A stretch of DNA of 64,000 nucleotides from Trueperaceae bacterium (GCA_034520945.1 JAXHNB010000002.1:256001-320000), one strand, 5' to 3'; numbered from the stretch's first letter, positions 2,354-18,317 are shown. Notes: generated by a model not told the origin, from the letters alone. Made by a program: numbers and translations.

Positions 2354-3622
2354 TCAGGAGGCCGCGTCGACGCGCCGCGGCGGGCGGAGCGCCAACGAGG
2401 CCACGGCCAACACCGCCGGCACCAGCGCCGAGAGCAGCAGGACCGGCAGGTAGCTTCCGGACACGTCGCGCCCCACCGCGAACACCAGGGGACCGATCGC
2501 GGTGCCTGCCACGCTGATGGTGGTGGCGAAGCCCTTGATGCTGCCGATGTGGCGGCGACCGAAGTAGTACGCGTACGCCGAGCCGGAGATGGCGCCCTTC
2601 ATGCCCTGCGCCAGACCCACCAGCACGCCGTACACCGGAAGCCACAGCGGCGAGACCCACCCCGCCAGGACCAACGCGCCGCTCAGGAACGCGAGCATCG
2701 CCGCCAACGCGAAGCGCGGCGGCATCCGGTCCAGCAGCGCGCCCGTCCCCACGTTGGCGCCGGCCGTCACCAGGCCCAGGGGCACGAACACCGCCGCCGC
2801 CGTGGCGCGATCCACGCCGCTGACGCCGAGAATGTCGAAGTGGTGAAACACCAACCCCGTCCCCAGCGCCGCCACCGCCACGTCGCCGACCGTCACGAAC
2901 CAGAAGGCGGCCGTCCGTCGGGCCTGCCCCAACGAGAGGTCCATCTCGTCGACCGCATCGGCATCGGTCGGCGTCCGTGGGCGGTGGCCGTCGGGCCGTT
3001 CGCCGTACTCCTCGGGGCGACCGCGGAAGAAGGTCACGCCCAGCGGCACGGCGATCAACGCCACGGCGGCCGCCATCGCCGCGTACGAGGCGCGCCAGCC
3101 GAGCGTGGCGATGAGGCGCTCCAGCAGGGGCGGAAAGAACGCCGTCGCGATCGACATGCCGAGTCCCAACAGGCCGATGGCCAACCCGCGCCGCCGCACG
3201 AACCACAGGTTCACCACGTGCAGCCCCACCAGGCTCAGCGACCCCTGCCCCAGGCCCCGGATCAGCACGAACCCGACCGCCAGCATCGCCAGGCTGGCGA
3301 CGCTGCTCATGTACAGGCACGCCAGCGCGAAGGCGCCGGCCACCACCGCCACGCCGAGCCGCGGCCCGCGCCGATCGACGAAGCGCCCTACGAACGGCAG
3401 CACGAACGAGCCGATCAGGGTGCCGATGGTGTACAGCAGCGACACCGTGCTGCGGGTCGCGCCCAGATCCACCAGGATCGGGTCGAGGAACACCGACACG
3501 CCGATGGTTTGCCCCGGCACCGTCATCATCGTCGTGACCAATGCCGCCGCCAGGACCACCCAGGCGTACGGCACGGGCGAGCGGTCGATGACGCGGCTGT
3601 GGCGTAGGGGGGCGTCGTGCAC
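2354..3622 (-). CDS. MFS transporter
   Basis: About 12 hydrophobic segments; motif A GRFVDRRGPR; WFVRRRGLAIG. Confidence 0.9.
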   Translation of the reverse strand: MHDAPLRHSRVIDRSPVPYAWVVLAAALVTTMMTVPGQTIGVSVFLDPILVDLGATRSTVSLLYTIGTLIGSFVLPFVGRFVDRRGPRLGVAVVAGAFALACLYMSSVASLAMLAVGFVLIRGLGQGSLSLVGLHVVNLWFVRRRGLAIGLLGLGMSIATAFFPPLLERLIATLGWRASYAAMAAAVALIAVPLGVTFFRGRPEEYGERPDGHRPRTPTDADAVDEMDLSLGQARRTAAFWFVTVGDVAVAALGTGLVFHHFDILGVSGVDRATAAAVFVPLGLVTAGANVGTGALLDRMPPRFALAAMLAFLSGALVLAGWVSPLWLPVYGVLVGLAQGMKGAISGSAYAYYFGRRHIGSIKGFATTISVAGTAIGPLVFAVGRDVSGSYLPVLLLSALVPAVLAVASLALRPPRRVDAAS

Positions 3623-3750
3623 GAAGCGGGGACTCCTGACGTGAAGCGTGGTGAGGGTCGGGTAGGGCCGGACCGGCCCGCGACCGGCGCGCGACCGCCC
3701 TCGAGCCTACACGGCGTTCCCGGGCGTGCACGTCGCCCGTGGCCGGCACC

Positions 3751-5882: not shown

Positions 5883-7060
5883 ACGTCGCCGGTGCGCCCC
5901 CCCGGCCCGAACGCCCGGGACAGGGAAGCACGGACGGCGCCGCGCGGGCCACCCCCGCGGTCGAGCTGCGCGGGCTGGTCAAGGAGTTCCCCGGGCCGAG
6001 CGGGGGGGAGGGCGTGCGGGCGCTCGACGGGATCGACGTGGACGTGTCGGAAGGCGAGTTCTTCGCGCTGCTCGGCCCGTCGGGCTGCGGCAAGACCACC
6101 ACGCTGCGCATCATTGCGGGGTTCGAGGCTCCCACCGCCGGGGAGATTTTGATCCGAGGACGGCCCGTGCAGGGCGTGCCCCCCTTTCACCGGCCGGTGA
6201 ACACCGTGTTTCAGGATTACGCGCTGTTCCCCCACATGAACGTGCTTCAAAACGTCTCGTTCGGGTTGCGCATGGCGCACGTGCCGCGCGCGGAGGCCGA
6301 GGCGCGCGCCGCCGAAGCGCTGGAGATGGTGCGGCTGCCCGGCGCCGCCCGCCGCAAACCGGCGCAACTCTCGGGCGGTCAGCGCCAGCGCGTCGCGCTG
6401 GCCCGGGCGCTGGTGAACCGCCCGTCGGTGCTGCTTCTCGACGAGCCGCTGGGCGCGCTGGACCTGAAGCTGCGCAAGGCGATGCAGTTGGAGTTGGCAC
6501 AGCTCCAGCAGCAGGTCGGGATCACCTTCGTGTACGTGACGCACGACCAGGAGGAGGCGCTCACCATGTCCGACCGCGTGGCGGTGATGTCGGAGGGCCG
6601 CATCCATCAGGTCGGCCCTCCGGCCGAGGTGTACGAGCGGCCGCGCGACGGGTTCGTCGCCGACTTCATCGGGGAGACCAACTTCCTGGATGGCACGCTT
6701 GATGCGCGCGAGGGCGGGCGCGGCCGCGTGCGGCTGTCCAGCGGTCGGAAGCTGGTCGGCGAGGTGCGCAGCGACGGGCTCGAGACGGGCGCCGCGGTGC
6801 GGCTGGCGATCCGGCCCGAGAAGCTGGCCCTCCACCCGCGCGACGGGCACGCCGGTCCGGGCGACGGACTGGCCCGGCTCGACGGCGCCGTCGAGCGGGT
6901 CCACTACCTCGGCACGGACACCCGCTACCACGTTCGCACCGACGACGGCGTGGTGATCGTGCGCGCCCAGAACCGGCACGAGGGCTTCGCCGACGCGTTC
7001 CGGGCGGGCGACCCCGTGCGCGTTCATTGGGATCCCCGGCACGCCAGCGTGCTGCGGTGA
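5879..7060 (+). CDS. potA: Polyamine ABC transporter ATP-binding protein
   Basis: GPSGCGKT, LSGGQRQR, LLLDEPLGALDLKLRKAMQ; TOBE-like C-terminus. Confidence 0.9.
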   Translation: MNVAGAPPRPERPGQGSTDGAARATPAVELRGLVKEFPGPSGGEGVRALDGIDVDVSEGEFFALLGPSGCGKTTTLRIIAGFEAPTAGEILIRGRPVQGVPPFHRPVNTVFQDYALFPHMNVLQNVSFGLRMAHVPRAEAEARAAEALEMVRLPGAARRKPAQLSGGQRQRVALARALVNRPSVLLLDEPLGALDLKLRKAMQLELAQLQQQVGITFVYVTHDQEEALTMSDRVAVMSEGRIHQVGPPAEVYERPRDGFVADFIGETNFLDGTLDAREGGRGRVRLSSGRKLVGEVRSDGLETGAAVRLAIRPEKLALHPRDGHAGPGDGLARLDGAVERVHYLGTDTRYHVRTDDGVVIVRAQNRHEGFADAFRAGDPVRVHWDPRHASVLR

Positions 7061-7082
7061 GTGGGACCACGGAGGCCGGGGC

Positions 7083-8009
7083 ATGATCACCGTGGTGGGA
7101 AGCCTGAACCTGGACATGGTCGTCCGCGTGGACCGCATGCCGGATCCGGGCGAAACCTTGCTCGCCCGCGGGTACGCCGAACACCACGGCGGCAAGGGCG
7201 CAAACCAAGCCGTCGCTGCCGTGAGGGCGGGCGGACGCGTGGCGATGATCGGCCGCATCGGACGGGACGAGGCCGGCTCGCGCCTCCGGGACGGACTGGC
7301 GTCCGACGACATCGACGTTGCCGAGGTTCGGACGGTGGAGGCGCCGACGGGCCGCGCCCTGATCGAGGTGGACGCCGCCGGCCAGAACCGCATCGTGGTC
7401 GTGCCCGGCGCCAACGCCGCGTGGACGGCGGACGACCTGCCGGGCGAGGCGCTGATCCGCAGCGACGTGATCGTGCTGCAGCGCGAGGTGCCCGACGACG
7501 TGGTGGCGGCCGCGATCCGACGGGGGGCCGCCGCGGGCCGGCGGACGGTGCTGAACCTGGCGCCGGCCGGCGCGATGCCGGACGACGTCCTCGCCGCCTG
7601 CAGCGTGCTCGTGGTGAACGAGTCCGAGGCCGCCTTCCTGGACGGCTGTGCGGCGGACGACGTCGCGGCCGATCCGTTGGGCGCCGCGCGCCGTTTGGCG
7701 TCGCGCGCCCTGGGGGACGTCGTGGTGACGCTCGGGGCGGACGGCGCCGTGCACGCGGGCGCCGGCGGGGAGGGACGCATCGAGGGATTCCCGGTGCACG
7801 CCGTGGACACCACCGCGGCGGGCGACGCCTTCGTCGGTGCGCTGGCCACCCGTTTGGACGAGGGCGCCGTGATGGGCGAGGCCGTCCGGTTCGGTTGTGC
7901 TGCTGGTGCCGAAGCCGTCACACGCGAGGGGGCGCAACCGTCGCTTCCGGATCGGGCGGCGATCGAGGCGCGCTTGGGTGGAGGCGCCCCTCTCTCGCGA
8001 CCTGCCTGA
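7083..8009 (+). CDS. rbsK: Ribokinase (PfkB family)
   Basis: VVGSLNLD, GGKGANQAVA, DTTAAGDAFVG. Confidence 0.88.
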   Translation: MITVVGSLNLDMVVRVDRMPDPGETLLARGYAEHHGGKGANQAVAAVRAGGRVAMIGRIGRDEAGSRLRDGLASDDIDVAEVRTVEAPTGRALIEVDAAGQNRIVVVPGANAAWTADDLPGEALIRSDVIVLQREVPDDVVAAAIRRGAAAGRRTVLNLAPAGAMPDDVLAACSVLVVNESEAAFLDGCAADDVAADPLGAARRLASRALGDVVVTLGADGAVHAGAGGEGRIEGFPVHAVDTTAAGDAFVGALATRLDEGAVMGEAVRFGCAAGAEAVTREGAQPSLPDRAAIEARLGGGAPLSRPA

Positions 8010-8022
8010 GCATGGCCTGCTT

Positions 8023-8290
8023 GTGAGTGTACGCCGCAACGTCGCCACCCACGGCGGACGACTCAGCGACCGCGCTTCGAGTGCGCAGTGGAACGCGGAC
8101 CGTGCCGTGCGGCGTCCGAAGGTCGTGAAGCTGGTGGCGAATCCGGCCCTGCGGTAGTACGTGCAAGAGCGCGTCTCGCACGAGGCGAACTCCCAGGCGC
8201 ACTACGTGCAAGCCGGGGGCGCGCCGAAACGCGAGCTGACCGCGTGCCTCCGCCCCTTCAGGGCGCCACGCCAACGACGGATCGGAAAGG
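8023..8290 (+). mobile_element. Degenerate IS30-family transposase remnant
   Basis: One frame reads RRNVATHGGRLSDRASSAQWNADRAVRRPKVVKLVANPALR*YVQER-VSHEANSQAHYVQAGGAPKRELTACLR. This recalls IS30 transposase segments, with an in-frame stop at 8155-8157 and the WSPEQI region missing. Confidence 0.65.
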
Positions 8291-8357
8291 TCCGTAGGGC
8301 ACGGGACTGGAGCGGTAGGAGATTCGCACTGGAAGCGGCATGAGCTTCTCGGGTCTC

Positions 8358-8591
8358 TCACGGTGCTTCCTCGTCACCCAATGGAAGATGCAACAGCCGT
8401 TCGCTGCGCCAGACCCGGACGATCCTCAGCCGCTGGGGATCGCGCCGGTACACGATGCGGAAAGGCGGGTGGATGAGTTCCCGCAGGAAGGGTTGATCGA
8501 ATTCGGGCACCCCTTTCTCCGCATACCAAGCCTGCGCCGCCTCCAGGTCACGGAGTGCAGATTCGGCGAAACTGATGCCCGTCCGGGGTAT
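8358..8591 (-). pseudogene. RelE/ParE-family toxin with ATA in place of ATG and an internal deletion
   Basis: Manual translation (I)PRTGISFAESALRDLEAAQAWYAEKGVPEFDQPFLRELIHPPFRIVYRRDPQRLRIVRVWRSERLL..., 77 aa, 4 nt downstream of the antitoxin stop. Confidence 0.75.
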
Positions 8592-8595
8592 GGCG

Positions 8596-8865
8596 CTACT
8601 CGAGGCCGAGCCGCGCCCTGGCCTCGTCGAGGGAAACCTCGCGCCCCGCCTCTAGGTCCGCAAGGCCCGTGACCGCCGCCCGCATGAAGTCCCGTTCTTC
8701 CTGGGCTTTCTCGTAGTCGCCAAGCGACTGGATCACGGCGACACCCCGTCCCCGGCTGGTGAGCAGCACGGGGCGGTGGACCTCGGTCGCATGCTTCACG
8801 ACGCGGCCCGGATTCACCTTCAGATCCGTCAGGGGAACCAGATCCTGAGAAAATTTGATCGTCAT
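8596..8865 (-). CDS. Phd/YefM-family antitoxin
   Basis: VPLTDLKVNPGRVV...PVLLTSRGRGVAVIQSLGDYE; GGAGG RBS; 89 aa. Confidence 0.88.
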   Translation of the reverse strand: MTIKFSQDLVPLTDLKVNPGRVVKHATEVHRPVLLTSRGRGVAVIQSLGDYEKAQEERDFMRAAVTGLADLEAGREVSLDEARARLGLE

Positions 8866-11655: not shown

Positions 11656-11935
11656 CGGGCCAGCTTCCCCGTGAGGCGCATGGGGTCCGAGAATACCCCA
11701 CGCCTCGCGGCGCGGCGACGCGCCGACGGTGCCCCGTAAGGTCCGGAGCCCCACCGAGGCCGGGCGTGTGCTAACATACGTCCCACACGGCTACGAAGGA
11801 GCGTGAAAGCTTTCGAGCGACCCTACGGCGCGCGGTTCGACCGGAACGGATTCGTTCCTCGGCCGCGGTCATCCCGGCCCTCGTTCCCCGGTGGGGCACG
11901 CGCGGGCCGCGCGCGGGGCGCCCGTGGCGACATCC

Positions 11936-12664
11936 ATGCCGACCTCCGACGAATCTTCGCGAGCGACGAACGACCCGCCGCTGCCGTTCCACGTCGTGCG
12001 GACGGAACCGCGCCACGCGGAGGCGGTTGCTCGCCTGATGCGGCGTGCGCACGGCATCGGCGATGATGAGCCCTGCCCCAGTTGCCCCACGCCGGCGATG
12101 GTGCTGAGGCAGGTTCAGCGCTTTCCCGACGGGCAGTTCGTGGCGGTCAGCGAAGGCGATGACGACGAGGTGATCGGCGCGGGTACGTTGATGCGCACCG
12201 ACTACCCACCGACGGCACGTCCGTTGCCCTGGCTCCGCATGGTGGGGGGTCTGAGCCTCCGGAACCACGACCCGAACGGGCGGTGGTTGTACGGCGTCGA
12301 GCTGGTGGTGGACCCCTCCGCCCAGGGCCGCGGGGTGGGCAGCGCCCTGTACGAGCGACGACTCGCGCTGGTGCGCGAACTGGGGCTTGCGGGCATGTAC
12401 GCGGGCGGCATGCTGAAGGGGTATGCCCGCTATCGCGACCGGATGTCCCCGCGCGCCTACGCCGAGCGGGTGCGACGGGGTCAAATCGACGATCCCACCG
12501 TCAGCATGCAACTCAGGCGCGGCTTCGAGGCGGCCGGCGTGATCGAGAATTACGAGGACGACGACGAATCGGGCCACTGCGCCATGTTGATCGTGTGGCG
12601 GCCCGAAACGGCCGAGACCGAGAAGCATACGCGCCGCGGGGCGCGACCCAAGCCGACGGCCTGA
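11936..12664 (+). CDS. GNAT-family N-acetyltransferase
   Basis: FPDGQFVA, HDPNGRWLYGVELVVDPSAQGRGVGSALY (acetyl-CoA motif QxxGxG), DPTVSMQL. Confidence 0.85.
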   Translation: MPTSDESSRATNDPPLPFHVVRTEPRHAEAVARLMRRAHGIGDDEPCPSCPTPAMVLRQVQRFPDGQFVAVSEGDDDEVIGAGTLMRTDYPPTARPLPWLRMVGGLSLRNHDPNGRWLYGVELVVDPSAQGRGVGSALYERRLALVRELGLAGMYAGGMLKGYARYRDRMSPRAYAERVRRGQIDDPTVSMQLRRGFEAAGVIENYEDDDESGHCAMLIVWRPETAETEKHTRRGARPKPTA

Positions 12665-12676
12665 GGGGATGCGCGA

Positions 12677-13444
12677 TCACACGCCGGCGTCACGCGACCG
12701 GCGCGCCTCGTCCCGTGCGAGCGCGTGCGGCGCCAGGGCCGCGTCCAGGTCGCGTTGCGGTCGGCATAGGCCGAAGCCCTGCCCTAGGGCGATGCCGAGG
12801 GCACGAAGGTTGGGCACCACGGCCGGGTCCTCGATCCCTTCCGCCGTGAGGCGCATCCCCGCCTCGGCCAGGCGCCGCACCGCACGTCCCGACGCGCCCC
12901 ATGGCGCCAGCAGCACGTCCTCCACCACGCTTCGGTCCAGCTTGATGCCGGCGACGCGAAGGTTCCGGGGGAAGCGCACGGGCAGGTCGGCGGGCCGGAC
13001 GTCGTCCAGGAGCACCTCGATGCCGAGCTGGGCCAGGTACGTCACCGAGGCGGCATACGAAGACAGGTCGGGGATCCGTTGCTCGGTCAGCTCGACGCGC
13101 AGGCGGCGCCGGATTTCGGGCCGGAGCGCGCGGAGGCGGCGACTGGTGGAGGGGAGGGCCAGTTGGACGGGCGACAGATTCAAGTGCAGCGGTGGGGCCG
13201 TCGGGTGCGACGCCAACAGGTCCCCCAGGGCGGCGACGCCGTAGCGGGTGAACGCGTCGAGGCCGTCGCCGTGCAGGATCGGGTCGAGGAAGTCGGCGGG
13301 GCCGCGGACGGTTCCGTCCGGTTTGGGCCAACGTACGAGCGCTTCGAGCCCGTCGATGTGGCCGGTCGCGAGGTCCACCACGGGTTGAAGATGAAACGTC
13401 AGCTCGTGAAGGTGGGGGCGTTCCCGGGGATCGGGAGGGAGCAT
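12677..13444 (-). CDS. Stand-alone EAL-domain protein with altered loop 6
   Basis: QPVVDL..EALVRW, NLS, ELTE, KLDRS, AEGIE and QGF present; DDFGTG replaced by DDVRPA. Confidence 0.85.
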   Translation of the reverse strand: MLPPDPRERPHLHELTFHLQPVVDLATGHIDGLEALVRWPKPDGTVRGPADFLDPILHGDGLDAFTRYGVAALGDLLASHPTAPPLHLNLSPVQLALPSTSRRLRALRPEIRRRLRVELTEQRIPDLSSYAASVTYLAQLGIEVLLDDVRPADLPVRFPRNLRVAGIKLDRSVVEDVLLAPWGASGRAVRRLAEAGMRLTAEGIEDPAVVPNLRALGIALGQGFGLCRPQRDLDAALAPHALARDEARRSRDAGV

Positions 13445-13502
13445 GTCTTCGCCCTTTCCGGGGCGTGATCGGCGCGTGCGTTCATGGCCGTGAGGGCATG
13501 GC

Positions 13503-13531
13503 CACGGCCGCTGGTCGGACCAGCGGCCGTG
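13503..13531. terminator. Perfect 13-bp hairpin between the repeat-peptide gene and the EAL gene (stabiliser or attenuator)
   Basis: CACGGCCGCTGGT-CGG-ACCAGCGGCCGTG; no U-tract. Confidence 0.6.
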
Positions 13532-13553
13532 TTCCGGAGGTGTACGGTCGGGA

Positions 13554-13907
13554 TCAACCCACGTCGGGGATCACGACCGAGCCGCTGCCTGCCAGGAGCT
13601 CGTCGAGGTCGAGGCTCCCCACGTCCGGAATCACCACGGACCCGCTCCCCGCGAGCGAAGGCGCCTCGAGGGGCGCGGCCCCCACGTCCGGGATGACGAC
13701 GCTGCCGCTGCCGGCGTGCAGGTCCGTGTCGTCGCTCGAGGTCGTCCCTACGTCGGGGATCACGACCGAGCCGCTGCCCGCCGTGCTCGGCGCGGTGGCG
13801 TGATCCGCACCCGTGCCCAGGGCCAACGCGAGGCCGATCACGAGTACCGACACCAGGACGAACAACGGGGCGACGAACTTCGGAAGCTGCAGCGTACGGG
13901 TCATCAC
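13554..13907 (-). CDS. Secreted multi-core repeat-peptide precursor (4x AGSGSVVIPDVG)
   Basis: GAGGAGG RBS; hydrophobic N-terminus FVAPLFVLVSVLVIGLALAL; four identical 12-aa cores, the last ending at the stop codon. Confidence 0.85.
   Translation of the reverse strand: MMTRTLQLPKFVAPLFVLVSVLVIGLALALGTGADHATAPSTAGSGSVVIPDVGTTSSDDTDLHAGSGSVVIPDVGAAPLEAPSLAGSGSVVIPDVGSLDLDELLAGSGSVVIPDVG
13557..13781 (-). repeat. Four 36-bp coding repeats, protein-identical but synonymously diverged
   Basis: Copies at 13746-13781, 13680-13715, 13617-13652 and 13557-13592, with spacers of 10, 9 and 8 aa. Confidence 0.95.
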
Positions 13908-14158
13908 AAGGTCCTCCTCGGGAAACGCGGACGTGTGGGCCGGGACGGGTATGCCCCGTGACCTTCACTCGTCCGCAGCCTAGTGCGACCCGATTTAATC
14001 TCCGCCTAAGCCCGAGGCCCCGAGGCCTTGGACGCCGGTTGGCCGCGCGGCGCCTATCGTCTGGAGAAGCAGCGCGGGTCGCCTGCCACACCTCTTGAAC
14101 CGTCCGCCCGCATGCGCCGTGCCCGATCTCGTCCTCGACGTCTCGAAAGGACCTCTCC

Positions 14159-14338
14159 ATGACCCGAACCGAAGCGCTTCACCGCCTCCGAGGCACCTGG
14201 CGATTCGAACTGCGCGCCGGACGCGTGCGCGTCGCCGACCTGTCCCTGCTCCGCGCCCTGGACGCCGATCTCGGCGAGGCGCACGGCGAGGCCGCCACCG
14301 GGGACGGACGCGCCGCCACGACCTCGTTGGCTGGCTGA
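14159..14338 (+). CDS. Small hypothetical protein, 59 aa, absent from the ORF track
   Basis: GAAAGGA RBS then ATG: MTRTEALHRLRGTWRFELRAGRVRVADLSLLRALDADLGEAHGEAATGDGRAATTSLAG*. Confidence 0.5.
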   Translation: MTRTEALHRLRGTWRFELRAGRVRVADLSLLRALDADLGEAHGEAATGDGRAATTSLAG

Positions 14339-14399
14339 CCCCCCCGCAGCGCCACCGCGGCGCTCACCCCCGGCGGCTTCGCTCCCGTATGCTCGGGGT

Positions 14400-16865
14400 G
14401 TGTGGACGACGCGCATTCATGAGGCGCTGGCCTGCGACGCCGGCCCCCACCTGCTGTTGGGGGGCGAAGCGTACGGTGTCCCCTACCTGATCGAGGATCT
14501 CGGCCGCGACGCGAAGCTCGCCTGGATGCGGGCCACGCCGGCCGATCGGGACGATGCCGTCGCGCAAGGCAACCTGCTGGCGGAAGCGGTCAACCGCGCC
14601 GTCGGGGGGCAACTGCTCGCGGGCGCGTTGCCGTTCGCGTATCAACTCCGGGTGCTCCGTCACCACCTGGTCGACCTGGCGCCGCTCACGCTGGCCCTGT
14701 CCGAAGCGCAGCACGCGGCCGCGTTGGCCCGCGCGCTGGCCGAGGCCCACCGGCCCGGCCTGTGCGTCCTCCTGGATGCGTCCGAGCGGATCCCCGACCT
14801 GCACGTCCACGAGATCCCGCCCGAGGTGCTGGCGTTGCGCCGCGACGAGGCGCGCGCCTTGGCGCCGCACGGCCTCAGTGATGCCACGGTCGAGCAGTCG
14901 TGGCGCACCAGCGGGGGGCGGATGGCGGACTTCCTGGTGCGCGTGCTGCGCGCCGCCCGGATGCCCGTCCCGACCCTTCCCACCCCAGACGCGCGCGTCC
15001 TGCCGCCCCAGGAGGCGCGGAGCGAGGATCCCGGGCGCGTCGTGCGGGCGCTGGTCCGCGAGCGCCGCTTCGTCGAAGCACTCGAACTGGCCGTCATGGC
15101 CCAGCCCGACGCGGTCGAAGGGCTGTTGCGGGAGGCCGGCCCGGCCTATCAGGAGCGGGGCCTCCTCGGGCGGCTGCACCTCCTGCTCTCGAGCCTGGAC
15201 GCGCCGCACCGCACCGAGGAACGCGTCCTCGAATGGCGGCTGGTCGCGGGGTTCGCCGCCCATGATCTCGACGTGGTCCCGGAGGTCGACCGCCACCTGG
15301 CGGCCTTCGACGCGCCACGCCTGCGCGCACGCCGCGCCGGCCTTCTGCCGCCCGAAGAGGCGCGGAAGATGGCGCGGGAGGCGCTGCACGGCCTGCGGGA
15401 CCCCTTGACGCTGTTCCAGGCGGGCCGCTTCGCCGAGGACGAGGCCGAGGCCGCCGACCTGCTGCTGGCGTCGGTTCGCGTGGCGGAGGATGAGGGCACC
15501 GCCTACGACGTCGTCCGCAATGCCGGCATGCTCGGTGAGCGCTACCTGCACGACGGCCGCCTGGACGAGGCGGCCACCTGGTTGGAATGGGCGTTGGACA
15601 CCTACGCCCGCAAAGGGATCCAGGACGGCAGCCGCCGCTTGCGCATCTTGAACGACCTGGCGGTGGCGCGGCTCCTCCTCGGGGCGTCGGCCGGCCTTCG
15701 CATGCAGCTCGAGGAGGCCCAACGTTCGCTGGAGGGCATCCTGCCCAGCTTGGCGCTGCTGTTCCGAACCACCCTGGCCGACATGGCCCGTGCCGCCGGC
15801 CGCGAGGACGAGGCGCACGAACTACTTGTGAGCGTGCAGGAGGGGGCCCCACGCAGGCTTCGGGCCCACTTCGCGCTGCCGTGGGTGCTGCACTGCCTGC
15901 GCCGGGGCGAGATCTCCGCCGCGCAGCAGGCGGCCCGAGAGGTGGAAGCCCTCTCCCGCGTGGACGGCGGCACCGTGCGTGCGCCGGCCCGGATCGCGAT
16001 GGCGGTGATCGCCTCCGTGACCGCACCGGACGACCCCGACACGCGGAGTGAGCTCCTGGCCGCCATCGATGCGCCGCACCTGCAGCTCGAGCAGGCCGTC
16101 ATCGGGGGCTGCGCCGCCCTGGCGGCCGGTGCGGCGCTGGACGACGTGCCGGTCCGGGTCGGGCGGGTGCTGCGCCGTGTGCCGGACGCCATGCTGGAGG
16201 CGTTCTGCACCGGGCCGCGCACGGCCCGCGTGGTCCGCTCCGCCGTGCGCGGCGACCGCGCGCCCCTGGTCCTCGCCTTCGCCGCCGACGGGCCGCCCCG
16301 GGCCCGACTGGACGGCGAGCCGCTCGAGCTGAGCGGGCGCCTGTTCGAGGTGGCCCTGATGCTGACCCTTCACCCCGACGGGCTCGGGGACGAACGGTTG
16401 CACGACCTGCTGGTGGGGGACGGCGGGGCGTTCGGGCTGAGCGCGTTGCGGACCCACGTGAGCCGCCTGAGGGCCCGGGTGCCTATCAGCCGCGCGCCGT
16501 ACCGCTTCGAGGTTCCGGTCGAGACCGACGTAGGCGAAGCGCGGGCCCTGCTGGCCCGCCGCCGCGTCCGCGAAGCCATGGCGTGCGCCCCGGGGCCGAT
16601 GCTTCCAGGTAGCGACGCGCCGGGCGTGGAGGCCGTGCGCGAGGAGTTCGCGGAGGAACTCCGCCAAGCGGCCCTGGCCAGCGGCGACGGCGAGGTGCTG
16701 GTCGAACTGGGCGACCGCATGCCGCACGACCTGGAGATCTGGGAGGCGGCGTTGGGCGCCCTGACCGACGGCGACGCCCGCGTGCCGTTGATCAAGGCGC
16801 GGATCGCGCGGCTGCAGCGCGCCTACGACCTGCCCGGCGCGCCGTGGGCCGATGCCCATGCCTGA
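14400..16865 (+). CDS. Large transcriptional regulator: degenerate MalT-like N-terminus, helical (TPR-like) middle, C-terminal winged-HTH/activator-like domain
   Basis: AWMRATPADRDD (MalT-like), Ala/Leu-rich helical repeats, C-terminus LMLTLHPDGL..LRTHVSRLRAR..PYR..GPMLPGSDAPGV; TATGCT box 6 nt before the GTG. Confidence 0.7.
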   Translation: MWTTRIHEALACDAGPHLLLGGEAYGVPYLIEDLGRDAKLAWMRATPADRDDAVAQGNLLAEAVNRAVGGQLLAGALPFAYQLRVLRHHLVDLAPLTLALSEAQHAAALARALAEAHRPGLCVLLDASERIPDLHVHEIPPEVLALRRDEARALAPHGLSDATVEQSWRTSGGRMADFLVRVLRAARMPVPTLPTPDARVLPPQEARSEDPGRVVRALVRERRFVEALELAVMAQPDAVEGLLREAGPAYQERGLLGRLHLLLSSLDAPHRTEERVLEWRLVAGFAAHDLDVVPEVDRHLAAFDAPRLRARRAGLLPPEEARKMAREALHGLRDPLTLFQAGRFAEDEAEAADLLLASVRVAEDEGTAYDVVRNAGMLGERYLHDGRLDEAATWLEWALDTYARKGIQDGSRRLRILNDLAVARLLLGASAGLRMQLEEAQRSLEGILPSLALLFRTTLADMARAAGREDEAHELLVSVQEGAPRRLRAHFALPWVLHCLRRGEISAAQQAAREVEALSRVDGGTVRAPARIAMAVIASVTAPDDPDTRSELLAAIDAPHLQLEQAVIGGCAALAAGAALDDVPVRVGRVLRRVPDAMLEAFCTGPRTARVVRSAVRGDRAPLVLAFAADGPPRARLDGEPLELSGRLFEVALMLTLHPDGLGDERLHDLLVGDGGAFGLSALRTHVSRLRARVPISRAPYRFEVPVETDVGEARALLARRRVREAMACAPGPMLPGSDAPGVEAVREEFAEELRQAALASGDGEVLVELGDRMPHDLEIWEAALGALTDGDARVPLIKARIARLQRAYDLPGAPWADAHA

Positions 16866-16877
16866 GCAGGGGCGGCC

Positions 16878-18317
16878 ATGAGCTGGCACGAGAGTTACGT
16901 CGGTCGCGTGCTCGAACCCGACTACCGGTTCGCGGCGCGGCACCTGGCGCCCCACCTGTTGGATGCGCTGGCGGCGCATCTGCGGACGGTGGCCGACCTT
17001 CCCATCGCCCAGGCGCCCGCGGCGCGCGCGCAGATCCGTGCTGCGCACCAGGCGCTCCTGCGTTGGCACGACCGGCCGCTGCCGGACTTTTCACCGGAGG
17101 TGCCCGACGCCTTCTTCGCCGTCTACCGGGCCCTCGAGGAGGAGCTGGGCGCGGCCAGCGCCGGTTGGTTGCGGGTGGGTCTCTCCCGAAACGACCTCGA
17201 CATGACGGTGTACAAGTTGCGGGCGCGGGCGCAGGCGTTGCAGTTGGGGGGCCGGCTGCTGACGCTGCGCGCCGCCGTGCTGGAGCAGGCGGAACGTGGG
17301 ATCGACACGGTGCTGATCGCCCAGACGCACCACCAACCGGGCCAGCCCACCACGGTGGCGCACTATCACCTGGCGATCGCCGCGTTGGCGGCGCGCGACA
17401 CGGCGCGATTGCTGGACGCCTGGGTGCGCCTGGATACCTGCCCGATGGGGGCGGCCGCGCTGGCGGGCAGCAGCCACCCGCTCGACCGCGCCGCCACCGC
17501 GCGGCGTCTGGGGTTCGCCGCCCCGGTCGAGAACACCTACGACGCGGTCGCCGCCAGCGATTGGGGCGTCGAGCTGGTCGGCGTGGCCCAAAGCGTGGCC
17601 TTGAACGCGTCGAGGTTGGTGTGCGACCTGTTGGCCTGGACCGCGGCGGGCTGGTACCGGCTGCCGGACGCGCTGGTGCAGGGCTCGTCCATCATGCCGC
17701 AGAAGCGGAATCCCGTTCCGCTGGAGCACGCACGGGCGCGCTTCTCGCGCGCGGCCGGCGCGGCGCAGATGGTGGCGTTCAGCAGCCACAACATCCCCTT
17801 CGCCGACCTGAACGATTTCGGTCCGGACCTGCAGGGCACGTTGCAGACGCAGCACACGCAACTGCTCGGTGGCCTGGACCTGCTTCACGCCTGCGTCCGC
17901 GAGGGGCGGTTCGACACCGAGGCGCTGGCCGAGGTGGCGGCCGCCACCGACACCAGCGCCACCGAACTGGCGGACGAACTGGTACGGCGCGCCGGCATGG
18001 ACCCTGCGGCCGCCCAGGGCGTGGTCGGCCGGATGGTGAGGCGAGCCGGGGCGGAGGGGCGTTCCGCGGCGTCGCTGGGGCCCGACGACCTCGAGGCGGC
18101 CGGAGGTCCGCGGGTGGAGGCCGAGATCGTCCGCGACGCGCTCGACCCCGCCCGTTTCGTGGCGCGCCGCGACGGCCTGGGTGGGCCCGCGCCGACGTCG
18201 GTGCGGGCCCAGCTGACGCGGGCGCGCGAGGCGCTGGATCGCGATCGCGCGCGCTTGGCGGGTCACGAGGAGCAGGCGGAGGCGGCACGACGCGAACTGC
18301 GTACGCCCTGGTCGTGA
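16878..18317 (+). CDS. Argininosuccinate lyase-like protein (fumarase/aspartase superfamily)
   Basis: SRNDL, THHQPGQP, CPMGAAALAG, signature GSSIMPQKRNP. Confidence 0.85.
   Translation: MSWHESYVGRVLEPDYRFAARHLAPHLLDALAAHLRTVADLPIAQAPAARAQIRAAHQALLRWHDRPLPDFSPEVPDAFFAVYRALEEELGAASAGWLRVGLSRNDLDMTVYKLRARAQALQLGGRLLTLRAAVLEQAERGIDTVLIAQTHHQPGQPTTVAHYHLAIAALAARDTARLLDAWVRLDTCPMGAAALAGSSHPLDRAATARRLGFAAPVENTYDAVAASDWGVELVGVAQSVALNASRLVCDLLAWTAAGWYRLPDALVQGSSIMPQKRNPVPLEHARARFSRAAGAAQMVAFSSHNIPFADLNDFGPDLQGTLQTQHTQLLGGLDLLHACVREGRFDTEALAEVAAATDTSATELADELVRRAGMDPAAAQGVVGRMVRRAGAEGRSAASLGPDDLEAAGGPRVEAEIVRDALDPARFVARRDGLGGPAPTSVRAQLTRAREALDRDRARLAGHEEQAEAARRELRTPWS

Follow-up and report, generated by a model that had tools for sequence, protein, structure and literature searches.

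A 64,000-nucleotide stretch of DNA from a Trueperaceae bacterium (GCA_034520945.1 JAXHNB010000002.1:256001-320000; hereafter the window) contains a four-gene module, in which an operon for a secreted pre-pro-peptide with four identical cores and a stand-alone EAL-domain protein diverges from an operon for a 59-aa protein and an 821-aa regulator. It is taken from contig 2 of a genome of 3.47 Mb (G000). Comparative sequence evidence demonstrates that the four genes form a conserved module, that the peptide core is under selection, and that the regulator and the promoter of the peptide gene have distinctive architectures. We tentatively interpret the module as an autoinducing peptide circuit with a fixed output, the hydrolysis of cyclic di-GMP (c-di-GMP), a reading that we regard as plausible, if far from assured.

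The family was traced through the regulator, since the 117-aa peptide precursor, when used as a query against the relatives, reached only one true relative, in genome G002. A match in genome G018 was rejected as a chance one, lying within a 376-aa frame on another contig. An exact-repeat scan of the neighbouring open reading frames (ORFs) also picked up G002 only, because most relatives carry a single core. Two partly overlapping collections of regulator loci were analyzed, a first set of 21 and a larger set of 50. Among the 10 loci of the first set with a regulator at least 37% identical, the EAL gene is located divergently upstream in 7, and 2 of the remaining 3 are cut by contig ends. The larger set gave the same picture: an EAL orthologue adjoins the regulator in 42 of the 50 loci (one match being weak), and a small ORF with a signal sequence, encoded on the EAL strand between the EAL gene and the regulator, is also present in 42 (interrupted by N in two of them). 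Five of the 8 loci without a peptide ORF have little or no upstream DNA; in the other three (L072, L082 and L090), upstream DNA is present and our filter found no peptide ORF. No gene other than those for the EAL protein, the peptide, the 59-aa protein and the regulator is conserved around the module in the loci of both sets. The neighbourhoods of the regulator homologues, which the sequence-only reading of the window had proposed to inspect for small secreted peptides, thus do contain such genes, and its link to an EAL protein is borne out as well. Judging from gene neighbourhoods, the four-gene module is conserved across Trueperaceae.

Nearly all related loci come from records titled Trueperaceae or Deinococcales metagenome-assembled genomes (MAGs), and one protein of genome G138 is identical to a protein for which a source gives the name Truepera radiovictrix. 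With this protein as the query, 93 of 128 family genomes yielded a match at E <= 1e-60, a tally that takes in paralogues as well as G118, a genome flagged as unpublished that is used for no other claim. Searched against 1.84 billion proteins, a profile built from ten regulator orthologues retrieved 421 cluster representatives with E <= 1e-30, a number that rises to 1053 with E <= 1e-10; the source names seen among the homologues are 'hypothetical protein', 'TPR repeat protein' and 'transcriptional regulator domain protein'. The locus itself is also present in DNA runs from at least two studies, of a salt pan and of sediment.

The peptide gene in the window has a strong ribosome-binding site, and its product begins with basic residues followed by a hydrophobic stretch of ~22 residues. 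This Sec-type signal or leader (aa 1-42) is followed by four identical copies of a 12-residue core, AGSGSVVIPDVG, separated by spacers of 10, 9 and 8 residues, the last copy being C-terminal; the ribosome-binding site, the signal-like N-terminus and the four cores are as the sequence-only reading had described. At the DNA level, 12 of the 36 columns are variable among the four copies, any two of which differ by 3-8 nucleotides; the variation includes a serine switch between AGC and TCG, and the encoded residues are all unchanged. When five substitutions were drawn at random in a simulation of 20,000 trials, all five were synonymous in 0.085% of them. Furthermore, the three spacers bear no mutual resemblance. 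The restriction of core differences to synonymous sites, together with the unrelated spacers, therefore points to purifying selection on the peptide unit rather than to a recent DNA repeat, and on this evidence the core is the selected unit of the gene. In DNA run X3, which represents a diverged strain, three of the listed differences lie inside the peptide gene; one alters the leader, one a spacer and one the Ala preceding core 3. None of the listed differences falls in a core or in either of the promoter boxes described below. Because the comparison covers the listed differences at low depth, this pattern is a weak hint. Logan contigs of the window locus end at the core repeats and therefore give no view of variation in core number.

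Across the family, typical precursors are 46-50 aa long and consist of a short basic N-terminus, ~20 hydrophobic residues and ~10 further residues that nearly always end in Ala, followed by a core of 9-13 residues. The first residues of the core are D, G or Q followed by S/T, and D-[P/V/A/G]-G stands immediately before the stop codon. Most precursors have a single core, and multiple cores were found in 7 of 43 genes: four in the window gene, at least five in G002 (locus L044, reaching a contig end), four in L087, three in L077 and two each in L059, L070 and L073. Repeated cores near regulator homologues, another expectation of the sequence-only reading, thus recur in several lineages. Since some multi-core forms have close single-core relatives (the L087 core, for example, is shared with the single-core L080 and L086), core multiplication arose several times. 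In L087 and L044, the cores form pure tandems devoid of spacers, and in G000, L077 and L059 every spacer again ends with x-x-Ala. From these alignments, the repeated unit is the core plus the residue before it. Tandem cores and recurring x-x-Ala spacers therefore favour cutting into units, and the pattern argues for the release of free peptides of ~11-13 residues, cut after a small residue on each side. The conservation of the core ends across genera, the D/G/Q-S/T start and the D-x-G end, may itself reflect processing. In two of the MAG loci, runs of N lie inside the peptide gene (L069, ~3216-3488; L085, ~3349-3669). Such runs probably represent masked sequence or assembly gaps where cores are repeated, and assemblies may therefore under-count multi-core forms.

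The 821-aa regulator had no Pfam or NCBIfam family above the cut-off and no PDB match by sequence search. The only Pfam match to the window protein was TPR_12 (E 0.01); among homologues, AimR (E 0.015) and Trans_reg_C also fell below the cut-off. A profile of 21 homologues was more informative, matching TPR proteins at positions 330-560 and an OmpR-type winged helix at positions 636-701 (5za3_A, E 9e-4). The AlphaFold model (pLDDT 91.3, pTM 0.74) has TPR hairpins at ~331-620, a winged helix at ~621-710 and a helical bundle at 710-808. The top Foldseek match of this model is a STAND-TPR protein (6mfv_A; E 7.7e-8, 649 columns, TM 0.49 by target), and the C-terminus matches the AfsR SARP domain (8hvr_I and 8k60_J; TM 0.59, rmsd 3.8-4.0, 225-228 columns, 22% identity), the SARP domain spanning aa 621-812 of 821. 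The helical middle noted from the sequence is thus predicted with high confidence, by profile, model and Foldseek, to be a TPR sensor. The 'HTH-like C-terminus' of the same reading is retained as a DNA-binding end, not as a simple HTH, a winged helix with BTAD helices standing in its place, and the anatomy needs a correction at the other end, where the N-terminal 200 residues are an alpha/beta NTPase-like domain. At the P-loop position of that domain, G-G-E-A-Y-G-V-P in the window, the Pro is invariant and Lys is lacking in 10 of 10 orthologues, so that the NTPase is degenerate; the Walker-B Asp is not invariant. In the absence of the Walker A lysine, control of the regulator by ATP is unlikely. 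Based on these models and profiles, the regulator is a STAND-like pseudo-NTPase with a TPR sensor and a C-terminal SARP domain, an arrangement of which we know no earlier description. Many homologues (P0001-P0054) carry the precomputed Pfam accession PF27103, which may already name part of the regulator. Co-folding of the regulator (alignment A3) with precursor residues 88-117 yielded a score of 0.14 against a mark of 0.32, which speaks neither for nor against binding.

The intergenic regions contain a promoter signature that fits a SARP-type regulator. In 33 of 38 loci, the DNA upstream of the peptide gene contains the heptamer pair TGAAGCG-N4-TGAAGCG (at most 1 mismatch per heptamer), as compared to a mean of 0.01 loci, and at most 1, in 200 shuffles. 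The two heptamers are 11 bp apart, and a TAnnnT hexamer follows the second one by exactly 10 nt in 32 of the 33 loci. With TAnnnT placed at -12..-7, the 22-bp box occupies -40..-19 and is centred at -29.5. Moreover, an inverted heptamer pair, 35-46 bp further upstream and facing the operon of the 59-aa gene and the regulator, is present in 30 of 38 loci. The five loci without TGAAGCG, and L029, have heptamers of a different sequence arranged identically; loci with such variant heptamers are G000, G002, L079, L081, L091, L053 and L029. In the window, which belongs to this set, the tentative pair facing the regulator operon (box 2) lies 10 nt before a -10-like TATCGT (14055..14060) and is not visibly conserved in G002; among the differences listed for run X3, the intergenic ones flank boxes 1 and 2 and none is inside. 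Loci with different heptamer types differ in the recognition helix of the regulator, aa 680-693 in alignment A3, a comparison of nine loci that is confounded by phylogeny. A consensus sigma-70 promoter scan of positions 12500-14500 found none. As described in excerpts of PMC10936776, SARP targets are repeats 11 bp apart at a fixed distance from the -10 element, and the afs box is centred at -29.5. From this correspondence of predicted sites, we consider it very probable that the regulator acts as a direct activator of the peptide-EAL operon and, probably, of the operon to which its own gene belongs.

The EAL protein matches the Pfam EAL family over residues 11-229 of 255 (E 8e-32) and, when aligned to solved EAL domains, retains the EAL, NLS, ELTE, DD, KLD, EGIE and GQGF motifs, so it is a probable c-di-GMP phosphodiesterase. 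The perfect hairpin that precedes this EAL-only gene, in the same direction, was correctly placed by the sequence-only reading; a perfect stem of at least 8 bp at the same position occurs in 5 of 37 other loci, that is, it is recurrent and not universal. An intrinsic-terminator scan of positions 12500-14500 found none, and the hairpin is possibly an attenuator or an RNA-stabilising stem that would set the ratio of peptide to EAL protein. On the divergent side, where the 59-aa and 821-aa ORFs lie as reported, the N-terminal 35 residues of the 59-aa protein are conserved in an alignment of 10 loci. The protein has no match in Pfam, NCBIfam or Atlas, and its AlphaFold2 model is helix-strand-strand-helix with a pLDDT of 64. 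Its conservation marks it as a genuine small protein outside any known family, and it may serve as an accessory factor or anti-activator that modulates the receptor. The features of the module are collected in Table 1.

Table 1. Coordinates of the peptide-EAL and regulator operons in the window (positions counted from its first nucleotide)
Feature	Position	Strand	Remarks
Stand-alone EAL gene	12677..13444	-	255 aa; downstream gene of the peptide operon
Perfect hairpin, 13-bp GC-rich stem, 3-nt loop	13531..13503	-	Between peptide stop and EAL start; no U-tract
Pre-pro-peptide gene	13554..13907	-	117 aa from GTG, or 116 aa from ATG at 13904
Core 4	13592..13557	-	aa 106-117; ends at the stop codon
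Core 3	13652..13617	-	aa 86-97; run X3 variant alters only the Ala preceding GSGS
Core 2	13715..13680	-	aa 65-76
Core 1	13781..13746	-	aa 43-54
Ribosome-binding site of the peptide gene, GAGGAGGA	13919..13912	-	Strong
Putative -10 element TAGGCT of the peptide-EAL promoter	13982..13977	-	10 nt after the second heptamer
Box 1, heptamers CTTAGGC and ATTAAAT, 11-bp period	14010..13993	-	Proposed SARP-domain site overlapping the -35 region of the peptide promoter; conserved in G002
Box 2 (tentative), heptamers CTTGGAC and GTTGGCC, 11 bp apart	14027..14044	+	Found by eye; faces the 59-aa/regulator operon
Gene for the conserved small protein	14159..14338	+	59 aa; first gene of the regulator operon
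Regulator gene	14400..16865	+	821 aa; ends with a stop codon
Regulator aa 1-200	14400..14999	+	Alpha/beta NTPase-like (NOD-like) domain, degenerate P-loop GGEAYGVP
Regulator aa 201-330	15000..15389	+	Helical arm (AlphaFold2 model)
Regulator aa 331-620	15390..16259	+	Predicted TPR sensor domain, proposed ligand-binding part; profile, model and Foldseek
Regulator aa 621-821	16260..16865	+	Predicted OmpR-type winged helix and BTAD helices, SARP-type; Foldseek and profile

On both sides, the module in the window is flanked by genes that are not conserved in the other loci. A GNAT acetyltransferase gene (11891-12664, +) is convergent with the EAL gene, their ends being 13 nt apart, and 13 nt after the stop codon of the regulator begins a gene (16878-18317, +) for a lyase of 479 aa that belongs to the argininosuccinate-lyase family (Pfam Lyase_1 and ASL_C2).

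Several family genomes encode two or three regulator paralogues each. At 11 loci, paralogues with 23-29% identity to the window protein (alignment A1) have no EAL neighbour (0 of 11), and a plausible small secreted ORF lies nearby only in L035; they are therefore placed outside the module. The ORF in L035 (genome G021; 6520-6741, +) is convergent, its product of ~54 aa combines a signal peptide with a tail that is acidic and contains Cys, and it may form a separate peptide/regulator pair with its paralogue. Another paralogue, of 837 aa, is encoded in the window's own genome (L043, G000:C6:788000-803000; 6336-8849, +; 26% identity in A1) beside a divergent gene for a helical-repeat protein of 403 aa; neither an EAL gene nor one for a small secreted peptide lies nearby. 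In the genus Truepera, the small secreted peptide encoded next to the regulator is of ~38 aa (L097, 6134-6250, -; L098, 6253-6429, -; L096, 1042-1245, -), with a conserved signal and a variable tail ending in S-S-x-R/K, and the 59-aa gene is present in G138, convergent with the regulator. Finally, two loci of one subclade (L027, 5113-6330, -; L031, 5531-6700, -) have an additional gene, for an S58 (DmpA-like) peptidase (Pfam E 1e-108), between those of the 59-aa protein and the regulator; this enzyme could process or degrade the peptide.

Under the reading as an autoinducing circuit, the peptide-EAL operon would be transcribed from a regulator-dependent promoter lacking a usable -35 element. 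The pre-pro-peptide would be exported through its Sec-type signal and cut after a small residue, either Ala or the Gly ending the preceding core, into peptides of ~11 residues (GSGSVVIPDVG here), so that one precursor in the window would yield four of them. The peptide would accumulate outside the cell and be re-imported by one of many oligopeptide ABC importers. The genome of the window contains 19 matches to the oligopeptide-binding family PF00496; import is therefore feasible, in a permissive sense only. Inside the cell, the peptide would bind the TPR sensor of the cytoplasmic STAND-like regulator and free its C-terminal SARP domains, which would sit side by side on heptamers 11 bp apart, centred near -29.5. 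From there, they would activate the peptide-EAL operon, in a positive feedback, and, from the inverted box, the operon of the 59-aa gene and the regulator. The EAL enzyme would then lower c-di-GMP, and the lifestyle of the population would switch.

Several observations weigh against this circuit. The module includes neither a protease nor a transporter or importer gene, and the contact between peptide and receptor is one that we infer. The host probably has an outer envelope layer, which the peptide would have to cross twice. The conserved core ends may reflect a function that is independent of a receptor. Moreover, the Truepera/g4 clade retains the regulator and the 59-aa gene in the absence of both the D-x-G peptide and a stand-alone EAL gene. 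In the Truepera genus (G138, G141 and G142), the regulator lies beside the different small secreted peptide, without a stand-alone EAL orthologue, and no secreted peptide was found beside it in the g4 genomes G013 and G058; the regulator can therefore exist without the D-x-G peptide. Finally, SARP regulators classically switch on the production of secreted products, according to excerpts of PMC10936776.

The last three of these points, along with the lack of a linked importer, would all suit a peptide that is the output rather than the signal. The regulator would then sense some other cue, through the TPR domain or the 59-aa protein, and turn on a secreted effector together with the EAL enzyme. 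Such an effector might be antimicrobial, matrix- or surface-active, or metal-binding, and multiple cores would simply raise its yield. The conservation of core termini across genera would fit a shared function unrelated to a receptor. However, the peptides are only 9-13 residues long, hydrophilic and, as far as the locus shows, unmodified, and they have no known bacteriocin features. In addition, the only other conserved gene of the operon encodes a cytoplasmic signalling enzyme rather than an immunity or export protein, and the regulator operon carries the same box (30 of 38 loci), a feedback wiring typical of autoinduction, although this alone is no proof of sensing. We consider the peptide as output to be unlikely, yet to deserve serious weight.

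The peptide might also be sensed outside the cell by an unlinked membrane receptor, or the precursor might remain a membrane-anchored protein with repeated ligand motifs, the regulator controlling its production only. The hydrophobic segment is long and the proposed cut lies 10-14 residues beyond it, so that release by signal peptidase is not certain, and here, too, the missing importer would be expected. Nevertheless, the spacer-free tandems (L087 and L044) and the x-x-Ala spacers (L077, L059 and G000) argue for cutting, and no sensor kinase is conserved beside the module, which makes this arrangement improbable. Slightly more improbable is a multi-core precursor of a ribosomally synthesized and post-translationally modified peptide (RiPP), with its enzymes encoded elsewhere and a modified or cyclised product. 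In some RiPP classes, precursors typically have several cores flanked by conserved recognition residues. The core is conserved here at its start and at its end, and an S58-family peptidase gene lies inside the module in L027 and L031. However, that gene is found in these two loci only, and none of the 42 peptide-carrying loci has a modifying enzyme in the module, which extends to the family what the sequence-only reading had noted for the window. Furthermore, the conserved neighbours of the precursor gene include no RiPP recognition element, most precursors contain one core and extend no further than its last residue, and the cores contain no Cys and few of the Ser/Thr patterns of common RiPP chemistries. 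A chance ORF over a DNA repeat, of which high-GC genomes produce many (71 ORFs in 9 kb here), is already refuted by the comparative data, given the synonymous-only core differences, the strong ribosome-binding site, the orthologues found in 42 of 50 loci, which share its signal and its C-terminal motif, and the conserved promoter upstream.

The proposed circuit resembles the RRNPP(A) systems of Bacillota (Rap-Phr, NprR-NprX, PlcR-PapR, AimR-AimP and Rgg-SHP) in that a gene for a small secreted pro-peptide, with the active part C-terminal, lies beside that for a cytoplasmic TPR regulator (42 of 50 loci here), and in its autoregulatory wiring. Some RRNPPA precursors also carry tandemly duplicated pheromones, as reported in excerpts of PMC11343458. 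In contrast, the receptors share no homology beyond generic TPR (5dbk_A, E 1e-3, TPR only; AimR, as above, below the cut-off), and a NOD-like domain, arm, TPR and C-terminal SARP domain replace the N-terminal HTH or phosphatase (the three-helix part of Rap) followed by TPR. The host is a member of Deinococcota instead of Bacillota, a co-transcribed EAL enzyme serves as the output, and the peptides are longer, at 9-13 residues, with the D-x-G end. By homology, architecture and host, the module is not a member of RRNPPA. Of the analogous peptide-sensing circuit put forward by the sequence-only reading, the conserved unit of peptide, TPR regulator and EAL protein thus stands and the RRNPP-like anatomy does not, the receptor being different and the precursors mostly single-core; sensing of the peptide by the regulator would be the remaining step.

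Closer parallels exist for the regulator itself. The large SARPs of Actinobacteria, such as AfsR, also combine a winged helix and BTAD with NOD and TPR domains, and their target promoters have two direct repeats 11 bp apart over the -35 region, at a fixed distance from the -10 element, where binding is predicted here. Unlike in AfsR and in the described small and large SARPs, in which the SARP domain is N-terminal, it is C-terminal here; furthermore, the Walker A lysine is lacking, the target is a peptide/EAL operon rather than an antibiotic cluster, and the phylum is a different one. The order of NOD, arm, TPR-like sensor and C-terminal DNA-binding domain is that of MalT, other STAND activators and the archaeal 6mfv. 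In the general STAND model, as outlined in excerpts of PMC10936776, the ligand binds the sensor and autoinhibition is relieved. The regulator differs from MalT and other STAND activators in its degenerate P-loop (no GxxxxGK[ST]), in the SARP-type rather than LuxR-type DNA-binding domain, and in the nature of the proposed ligand, a peptide to which it is genetically linked instead of a metabolite. Quorum sensing in Vibrio and Pseudomonas alters c-di-GMP turnover via regulatory cascades, whereas here the phosphodiesterase gene shares an operon with the signal gene.

Signalling by peptides that are recognised by cytoplasmic receptors is viewed as characteristic of Bacillota and of their mobile elements. 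The open-access literature that we searched contains nothing on such a system in Truepera or Deinococcota, and our searches counted no occurrence of Deinococcus or Deinococc- for the RRNPPA papers PMC9765709 and PMC10075063. What the module looks like, then, is an undescribed form of peptide cell-to-cell signalling outside Gram-positive bacteria. As a conjecture, about which we have more doubt than confidence, it might represent a Deinococcota-native family of peptide quorum sensing, independent of RRNPPA, in which a receptor composed of a pseudo-ATPase STAND module, TPR and a C-terminal SARP domain would bind re-imported D-x-G peptides of 9-13 residues and directly co-activate the signal gene and a c-di-GMP phosphodiesterase, with the number of cores (2 to at least 5) tuning the dose and the 59-aa protein acting as a new accessory factor.

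If the circuit operates as proposed, a second, non-homologous class of receptors would exist in another phylum, and the combination of a peptide with a TPR receptor would have evolved more than once. The SARP and STAND regulators, the ligands of which are mostly unknown, would gain a genetically encoded candidate ligand. The promoter box, consisting of the heptamer pair, the 10-nt interval and the -10 element, is sharply defined and, together with its lineage variants, could supply synthetic biology with ready orthogonal parts for use in high-GC or extremophile hosts. Even with the peptide as an output, the 421 cluster representatives retrieved at E <= 1e-30 would constitute an unannotated family with a clear regulon. 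With the signal gene tied by an operon to c-di-GMP turnover, the link from density to lifestyle in these bacteria would be testable with four genes and one synthetic peptide.

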